This document shows, in pieces, positions 1-1,542 of a DNA stretch of 1,542 nt. The DNA is from Escherichia coli. Lineage in GTDB: Bacteria; Pseudomonadota; Gammaproteobacteria; Enterobacterales; Enterobacteriaceae. The notes beneath the pieces are model-generated. The model was not told the DNA's origin. It made no database searches and saw nothing but the letters and a program-made list of their open reading frames with translations. Numbering within the stretch: position 1 is the first letter of the stretch; each line of letters opens with the position of its first letter. A program made the translations under genes and the position numbers. Where the stretch lies: assembly GCF_003334335.1 (NCBI RefSeq), contig NZ_QOWQ01000103.1; one strand, 5' to 3'.

Positions 1-26
1 GTAAGCGTACAGCCTGAACCGTCTGG
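1..26 (+). repeat. Putative left terminal inverted repeat (IRL) of the IS66-family element; inner boundary approximate
   Basis: Sequence gtaagcgtacagcctgaaccgtctgg starts with the GTAA(GCG) motif typical of IS66-family ends. The right end is not in the window, so the IR length and pairing cannot be verified. Confidence 0.5.
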
Positions 27-71: not shown

Positions 72-473
72 GTGGGAACCAAAGTGTCAGATATGCAGAA
101 AAATGTGACTCCCGGCAGGCGAAAAGGCTGCCCTAATTATCCTCCCGAATTTAAACAGCAGCTCGTTGCTGCCTCCTGTGAACCCGGGATATCCATCTCA
201 AAACTTGCTCTTGAAAATGGCATTAACGCCAATCTGTTGTTCAAATGGCGACAACAATGGCGCGAGGGAAAGCTGCTATTACCTTCTTCAGAGAGCCCCC
301 AGCTACTTCCTGTGACTCTCGATGCAGCTGCCGAACAGCCAGAATCGCTCGCAGAGGACCCGGAAACCCTCAGTATCAGCTGTGAGGTAACGTTCCGGCA
401 CGGGACGCTCCGCTTCAATGGCAATGTCAGCGAAAAGCTCCTGACTCTGCTGATACAGGAACTGAAGCGATGA
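72..473 (+). CDS. tnpA: IS66-family accessory protein TnpA (Orf1), small helix-turn-helix protein; start ambiguous (GTG at 72 or in-frame ATG at 93)
   Basis: 133-aa ORF from the track. The segment ...PEFKQQLVAASCEPGISISKLALENGINANLLFKWRQQWREG is a typical transposase-associated HTH signature. Stop TGA at 471-473 overlaps the next gene's ATG (ATGA). No strong Shine-Dalgarno sequence precedes either candidate start. Confidence 0.85.
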   Translation: MGTKVSDMQKNVTPGRRKGCPNYPPEFKQQLVAASCEPGISISKLALENGINANLLFKWRQQWREGKLLLPSSESPQLLPVTLDAAAEQPESLAEDPETLSISCEVTFRHGTLRFNGNVSEKLLTLLIQELKR

Positions 474-817
474 TCCCGTTACCTTCCGGGACCAAAATTT
501 GGCTGGTTGCCGGTATCACCGATATGAGAAATGGCTTCAACGGCCTGGCTGCGAAAGTACAAACGGCGCTGAAAGACGATCCCATGTCCGGCCATGTTTT
601 CATTTTCCGGGGCCGCAGCGGCAGTCAGGTTAAACTGCTGTGGTCCACCGGTGACGGACTGTGCCTCCTGACCAAACGGCTGGAGCGTGGGCGCTTCGCC
701 TGGCCGTCAGCCCGTGATGGCAAAGTGTTCCTTACGCAGGCGCAGCTGGCGATGCTGCTGGAAGGTATCGACTGGCGACAGCCCAAGCGGCTGCTGACCT
801 CCCTGACCATGCTGTAA
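470..817 (+). CDS. tnpB: IS66-family Orf2 protein (TnpB of IS66 type; unrelated to the IS200/IS605 TnpB nuclease)
   Basis: 115-aa ORF. The translation MIPLPSGTKIWLVAGITDMRNGFNGLAAKVQ...HVFIFRGRSGSQVKLLWSTGDGLCLLTKRLERGRFAWP matches the highly conserved IS66 Orf2 pattern. ATG at 470-472 overlaps the tnpA stop. Stop TAA at 815-817. Confidence 0.9.
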   Translation: MIPLPSGTKIWLVAGITDMRNGFNGLAAKVQTALKDDPMSGHVFIFRGRSGSQVKLLWSTGDGLCLLTKRLERGRFAWPSARDGKVFLTQAQLAMLLEGIDWRQPKRLLTSLTML

Positions 818-843
818 ATCTCTTTATCCTGGTTGTCACAGAA

Positions 844-867
844 TAAGCCCGGTAAAATACGGGCTTA
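844..867 (+). promoter_or_regulatory. Stem-loop in the tnpB-tnpC intergenic region that includes the first base of the tnpC start codon; possible translational control element
   Basis: Read directly: taagcccg (844-851), loop gtaaaata (852-859), cgggctta (860-867). This is a perfect 8-bp stem. It is not followed by a T-tract, so it does not look like an intrinsic terminator. Confidence 0.4.
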
Positions 868-1542
868 TGAACGACATCTCTTCTGACGACATCTTCCTGC
901 TAAAACAGCGCCTGGCCGAACAGGAAGCGCTGATCCACGCCCTGCAGGAAAAGCTGAGCAACCGGGAGCGCGAAATAGACCATCTGCAGGCGCAGCTGGA
1001 TAAACTCCGCCGGATGAACTTCGGCAGTCGTTCCGAAAAAGTCTCCCGCCGTATCGCACAAATGGAAGCCGATCTGAACCGGCTTCAGAAAGAGAGCGAT
1101 ACGCTGACTGGTAGGGTGTATGACCCGGCAGTACAGCGTCCGTTGCGTCAGACCCGCACCCGTAAGCCGTTCCCTGAATCACTACCCCGTGACGAAAAGC
1201 GACTGTTGCCTGCGGCGCCGTGCTGCCCGAACTGCGGCGGTTCACTGAGCTATCTGGGCGAGGATACCGCCGAACAGCTGGAGTTGATGCGTAGCGCATT
1301 CCGGGTTATCCGGACGGTACGGGAAAAACATGCCTGTACTCAGTGCGATGCCATCGTGCAGGCACCTGCACCTTCGCGGCCCATCGAGCGGGGTATCGCC
1401 GGACCGGGGCTGCTGGCCCGCGTGCTGACCTCGAAGTATGCAGAGCACACCCCGCTGTATTGCCAGTCAGAAATATACGGCCGGCAAGGTGTGGAGCTGA
1501 GCCGTTCACTGCTGTCGGGCTGGGTGGATGCATGCTGCCGGC
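867..1542 (+). CDS. tnpC: IS66-family transposase TnpC (Orf3), N-terminal ~225 codons; 3'-partial, continues beyond the window
   Basis: ATG at 867-869 opens a frame with no stop to the window end; it is absent from the ORF track because it lacks a stop. My translation reads MNDISSDDIFLLKQRLAEQEALIHALQEKLSNREREIDHLQAQLDKLRRMNFGSRSEK...LPAAPCCPNCGG...HACTQCD...YAEHTPLYCQSEIYGRQGVELSRSLLSGWVDACC. This shows a leucine-rich coiled coil followed by a CxxC...CxxC zinc-finger-like motif, as expected for the IS66 TnpC N-terminus. The DDE catalytic domain would lie downstream of the window. Confidence 0.85.
   Translation, partial: MNDISSDDIFLLKQRLAEQEALIHALQEKLSNREREIDHLQAQLDKLRRMNFGSRSEKVSRRIAQMEADLNRLQKESDTLTGRVYDPAVQRPLRQTRTRKPFPESLPRDEKRLLPAAPCCPNCGGSLSYLGEDTAEQLELMRSAFRVIRTVREKHACTQCDAIVQAPAPSRPIERGIAGPGLLARVLTSKYAEHTPLYCQSEIYGRQGVELSRSLLSGWVDACCR

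Follow-up and report, generated by a model that had tools for sequence, protein, structure and literature searches.

The window, by which we mean the whole 1542-nt stretch of Escherichia coli DNA analysed here, is the left 63% of the 2442-bp insertion sequence ISEc8 (IS66 family), and the left terminal inverted repeat (IRL) of the element has its outermost base at position 1; we assign this reading a probability of about 0.97. By megablast against E. coli chromosomes and plasmids, positions 1-1542 were 99.9% identical over their full length to annotated tnpA-tnpB-tnpC units labelled IS66 or ISEc8, and the transposase in the matching units carried the RefSeq name "IS66-like element ISEc8 family transposase". 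The name ISEc8, as used here, is a putative assignment taken from such RefSeq product names. The best copies differed from the window at one base, position 160, and the copies compared differed by one to six single-base changes (99.6-99.9% identity); six of these separated the window from the copy on pO157 (L004; 2442 bp; 99.6% identical), through which the window would agree with ISEc8 in sequence, length and termini. Both ISEc8 and its family are already catalogued, and the window copy adds nothing new to them; in annotation the window may be masked as a mobile element of known type.

Matches to the window were found by megablast in 3970 of 5426 complete E. coli genomes, at a median of 3 places (maximum: 32) per matching genome, and in 4144 plasmid records, chiefly from Escherichia and Klebsiella. 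At least one place covering at least 80% of the window was present in 3590 of the 5680 matching E. coli records, and most near-identical matches were complete elements. Copies for comparison were taken from four annotated records, species-representative genomes and viral contigs. Genome contigs and viral contigs were searched with an exact 94-base pattern spanning the variant positions 86 and 160, which gave 22 loci, 0 of them 100% identical to the window; no 100% match was found among the complete E. coli genomes, plasmids, genome contigs or viral contigs searched. The features of the window are listed below.

1..22, no strand assigned: left terminal inverted repeat (IRL) of ISEc8, set by the right-end alignment, 24 contexts and the empty site
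20..24, + strand: CGTCT block within the IRL, invariant in 5/5 IS66-family left ends compared
93..473, + strand: tnpA, IS66 accessory protein, 126 aa (ATG at 93; the reading frame also opens at GTG 72; same coordinates in RefSeq)
470..817, + strand: tnpB, IS66 accessory protein, 115 aa (ATG overlaps the tnpA stop, ATGA 470-473)
843..868, + strand: hairpin between tnpB and tnpC, 9-bp stem (-20.1 kcal/mol, z = -3.46)
867..1542, running off the window, + strand: 5' part of tnpC, DDE transposase, aa 1-225 of 512 (RefSeq annotation)

All three reading frames in the window were intact and on the same strand, and tnpA, tnpB and tnpC followed one another consecutively, each recognisable, as in other IS66-family elements. 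TnpA matched the NCBIfam model NF047595 (97.7 bits; cut-off: 74), TnpB matched NF033819 (120 bits; cut-off: 50), and TnpC, scored as the full protein of the 99.6%-identical pO157 copy, matched NF033517 (459 bits; cut-off: 180). Pfam searches of TnpC gave the domain order of IS66-family transposases, namely a leucine zipper (PF13007, 39-110), a zinc finger (PF13005, 119-161), the catalytic domain DDE_Tnp_IS66 (PF03050, 175-461) and a C-terminal element (PF13817, 468-505); the aa 1-225 encoded in the window take in the leucine zipper and the zinc finger and reach ~50 aa into the catalytic domain.

The first-pass annotation had placed the outer end of an IS66-family left inverted repeat at position 1 on the strength of the opening bases, and this placement was borne out by 24 contexts, by target-site duplications and by an empty site. 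The window opens GTAAGCGTACAGCC..., with GTAAGCG as bases 1-7. A 7-mer of this kind is weak evidence by itself; the near-identity of the whole window and the exact break points are far beyond chance. In 24 distinct contexts similarity began exactly at G1, the flanks upstream were unrelated, and all four bases occurred at position -1. When the element and one duplicate were removed from the yehR insertion (L001), the remaining 600 bp gave a single-piece 100% match to the intact yehQ-yehR region in many E. coli genomes. For ISEc8, these exact breaks, the duplications and the rebuilt empty yehR site prove the boundary at base 1. A true boundary elsewhere, either of a larger element (e.g. one with passenger DNA) or of an end inside the window, is vanishingly improbable: passenger genes are known in IS66-family elements (PMC12888890), but the 24 contexts break at base 1 with every base represented at -1, the duplications directly adjoin base 1 and the empty-site rebuild is exact. 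We rejected any boundary other than base 1 on the basis of the empty site and the break points in the 24 contexts. Since the start of the window is a real IS boundary, an upstream gene in the source would be interrupted or adjoined at exactly base 1; that the flanking target DNA is not visible within the window, as had been stated, held.

Perfect 8-bp direct repeats flanked four ISEc8 copies, namely L001 (GAACGGCA, inside yehR), L004 (GTAAAGCG), L026 (GAACAGAA) and L025 (GATGAGTT), with a chance of ~1 in 65,536 for one perfect 8-bp match. Together with three other family members (below), they confirm the 8-bp target-site duplication that had been stated for IS66-family elements and that is documented for IS66 (PMC6778807) and as 8-bp repeats for Paracoccus IS66-family elements (PMC3281130). 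As a test of individual copies, the comparison of the 8 bp outside each end was only partly informative: matching flanks were found in 4/11 complete simple copies, but the 8-mers differed in 7/11. Recombination between copies probably accounts for these seven, and the same explanation is given for IS66 in Agrobacterium (PMC6778807). Two copies on a single viral contig shared a flank, GGAGAACG, which lay to the left of one and to the right of the other, and this swapped flank is a signature of recombination between copies. Because ISEc8 copies often exchange flanks, an absent duplication is no argument against a genuine end. At the pO157 copy (L004, 2993-3000 and 5443-5450) the target GTAAAGCG resembles the IS tip GTAAGCG, a likeness that may be due to chance, and the target reads like the inside of another transposase gene.

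The right end lies outside the window and was therefore read in related copies, in which it ends ...GCTGTACGCTTAC. An inverted copy of positions 1-26 had been predicted downstream; such a copy is present in full elements but is only 20/26 identical, so that there is no 26-bp unit. Identity between left and right tips was 13/13, 18/22 and 20/26 over the respective lengths, with bases 1-13 perfect, and the terminal inverted repeats are thus imperfect; they fit the form usual in the IS66 family (~20-30 bp, beginning GTAAGC(G)). The predicted distance of about 1-1.3 kb from the window to the right end was too long, the actual distance being 747-900 bp. Element lengths were 2442 bp (pO157, Klebsiella ATCC 13883 and others), 2441 and 2435 bp in indel variants, and 2289 bp.

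The 2289-bp variant (L001, 3001-5289; L002, 3001-5289; L031) has lost 153 bp in frame at element positions 2066-2218, with CCTGT microhomology at both edges of the deletion. The lost segment encodes aa 400-450 of TnpC and falls within PF03050, the catalytic domain (175-461). The variant was found at three different sites, one of them with a perfect 8-bp duplication, and it therefore spread after the deletion; it may be either still active or moved in trans by full copies.

Ends were set for four further IS66-family members, which with ISEc8 gave five elements and ten ends. The four are listed below.

Klebsiella plasmid relative: 2438 bp
Salmonella plasmid element: 2480 bp, duplication AATTCAGC
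IS679-like element (L006): 2704 bp, duplication GACTCTGA, ends found by reading the sequence
IS66 on pAt15955: 2556 bp, duplication CGTTCCGG, coordinates from PMC6778807

GTAAGCG had been described as a conserved family-wide tip. Across the ten ends the core of this motif was retained (GTAA in 10/10, followed by GC in 9/10) but base 7 varied, being G except in IS66 (GTAAGCC), and the left tip of the IS679-like element reads GTAACCG. The family motif is better written GTAAGC(G) than GTAAGCG. A further conserved block, CCGT, was found near positions 19-22 of the ends. Pseudomonas IS66-family elements have inverted repeats GTAAGCGTCCGG..., i.e. GTAAGCG... (PMC12888890). A tblastn search with TnpB against plasmids gave at least 5000 records, filled by enterobacterial matches. 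A generic inverted-repeat scan of L006, L007 and L008 gave chance pairs only; L007 and L008, which appear truncated, were left out of the end comparison.

The left ends with CGTCT at 20-24 were those of the window, L005, L006, L009 and L019, from E. coli to Agrobacterium; the corresponding place in right ends reads CGTAT, CGTAG or CACAG. CGTCT at 20-24 may be a left-end-specific recognition site. It would follow from a functional difference between the two ends, with the left end dominant, that bases 1-24 hold a left-specific protein-binding site in a poorly understood family; we regard such a difference as rather doubtful. On a viral contig (L020, IMGVR_UViG_2622736468_000007, 7471-10494) a 582-bp ISEc8 left end (+) adjoins an ISEc8-like copy that is complete (2442 bp) and oppositely oriented. 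Both outer tips of this 3024-bp unit are left ends, and it is flanked by the perfect 8-bp direct repeat GGAAAATA; the unit looks like a left-left composite that may have transposed in one piece, which would fit a dominant left end.

The mechanism proposed below follows from what is generally known about DDE insertion sequences and the IS66 family; a 2026 paper describes the mechanism of the latter as insufficiently characterised (PMC12898284). The TnpC transposase would recognise both ends, with sequence-specific binding through the inner conserved bases (~19-24), and would cleave and join the DNA at the conserved tip GTAAGC(G). The tips would be joined to a target staggered by 8 bp, and repair would give the 8-bp duplication. 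ISEc8 occupies many insertion sites, some of them with fresh 8-bp duplications. TnpA and TnpB would act as accessory proteins, and for IS679 both are reported to be required for transposition (Han et al. 2001).

The exact coincidence of the window start with the tip is probably a by-product of assembly or cutting and no biological feature. One possibility, compatible with the identity of the window as the ISEc8 left end, is that several ISEc8 copies were collapsed into one repeat contig, of which the window is the whole or a slice, in which case no single junction would lie upstream. A 2219-bp short-read contig (L016, NZ_PTRE01000053.1, 1-2219) offers a precedent: its first base is IS base 1, since assemblers interrupt contigs where a repeat begins or ends, its coverage is 2245 against ~100 in neighbour contigs (~20 times), and several other contigs of the same assembly end 237 bases inside the IS. 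The number of places per genome (median 3, up to 32) also fits collapse, as does the variant combination of the window, which has no 100% match in the complete genomes or plasmids searched. Against this, the window end at 1542 coincides with no variant break point that was found (the 153-bp deletion starts at 2066), and the window might just as well have been cut on purpose from a finished genome; on balance we think collapse plausible but incline against it. The window copy could instead be a truncated or interrupted left-end remnant with no right end downstream, and a search for the inverted copy within 3 kb would then come up empty although base 1 is genuine. Left-end fragments do exist, such as the 582-bp one in L020 adjoining another IS copy, one E. 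albertii plasmid copy (H38) is split by an IS3-family element, and only 3590/5680 matching E. coli records have a place covering >=80% of the window; but the three frames of the window are intact, the window is one base from complete copies and most near-identical matches are complete, and we consider a remnant unlikely.

Outward or hybrid promoter effects on flanking genes had been called impossible to assess from the window. They proved to be partly assessable, and none was found, although promoters that are weak or not of the sigma-70 type can escape consensus scans. At the threshold of the scanning tool no sigma-70-like promoter was detected on either strand of the window, and no -35-like hexamer lay near enough to the tip for a hybrid promoter. 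The outward -35-like hexamer nearest the tip is CTGACC (30 to 25), which leaves 24 bases inside the IS and would pair with CGCTTA as its -10 (0/6 matches). Joining the right end to the left end in a hypothetical circle, with spacers of 0-9 bp, created no promoter. The idea that an outward or hybrid promoter at the left end drives an adjacent gene has in its favour a sole, weak outward candidate (TGGACA at 60 to 55, an 18-nt spacer and CAGATT at 36 to 31; 8/12 matches); set against the absence of a sigma-70-like site on both strands and the 0/6 match at the only -10 available to CTGACC, it is very improbable.

Single-strand folding of bases 1-70 gave a structure no better than shuffles (z = -1.12), and the end as a hairpin is therefore unsupported. 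An Rfam search returned one sub-threshold chance match only (isrJ, 20.7 bits; gathering score: 37). The hairpin at 843-868 has the arms AUAAGCCCG and CGGGCUUAU, and its 3' arm includes the first two bases of the tnpC AUG. Hairpins of unrelated sequence lie over the tnpC start in IS66 of Agrobacterium (L019, ~906-938) and in the IS679-like element (L006, ~3859-3881). In the Klebsiella relative, one stem pair is changed at both bases, which gives a mismatch and no compensating pair. Taken together, hairpins over the tnpC start hint at what might be a conserved translational brake on the transposase.

Among known systems, ISEc8 itself (E. coli O157:H7, pO157, many E. coli and plasmids) is alike in gene order, ends, 2442-bp length and 8-bp duplication; the window holds only the first 1542 of the 2442 bp, in which the full element and the 2289-bp deletion form are indistinguishable. 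The IS679-like element (L006) shares with ISEc8 the tnpA-tnpB-tnpC order, the 8-bp duplication, a right end beginning GTAAGCG... and the inner CCGT, and its TnpB is ~76% identical to that of ISEc8 among the matches listed. It differs in its length (2704 bp), its longer tnpA (216 aa) and its left tip (GTAACCG), and there is no nucleotide-level similarity between the two beyond the conserved blocks. IS679 is reportedly 2704 bp long (Han et al. 2001). IS66 of Agrobacterium tumefaciens, the founding member, differs from ISEc8 in length (2556 bp), in tip base 7 (C), in its alphaproteobacterial host and in its distant sequence, yet has the same three-gene layout, the 8-bp duplication and the GTAAGC tip, carries CGTCT at left-end positions 20-24 and forms a hairpin over the tnpC start.
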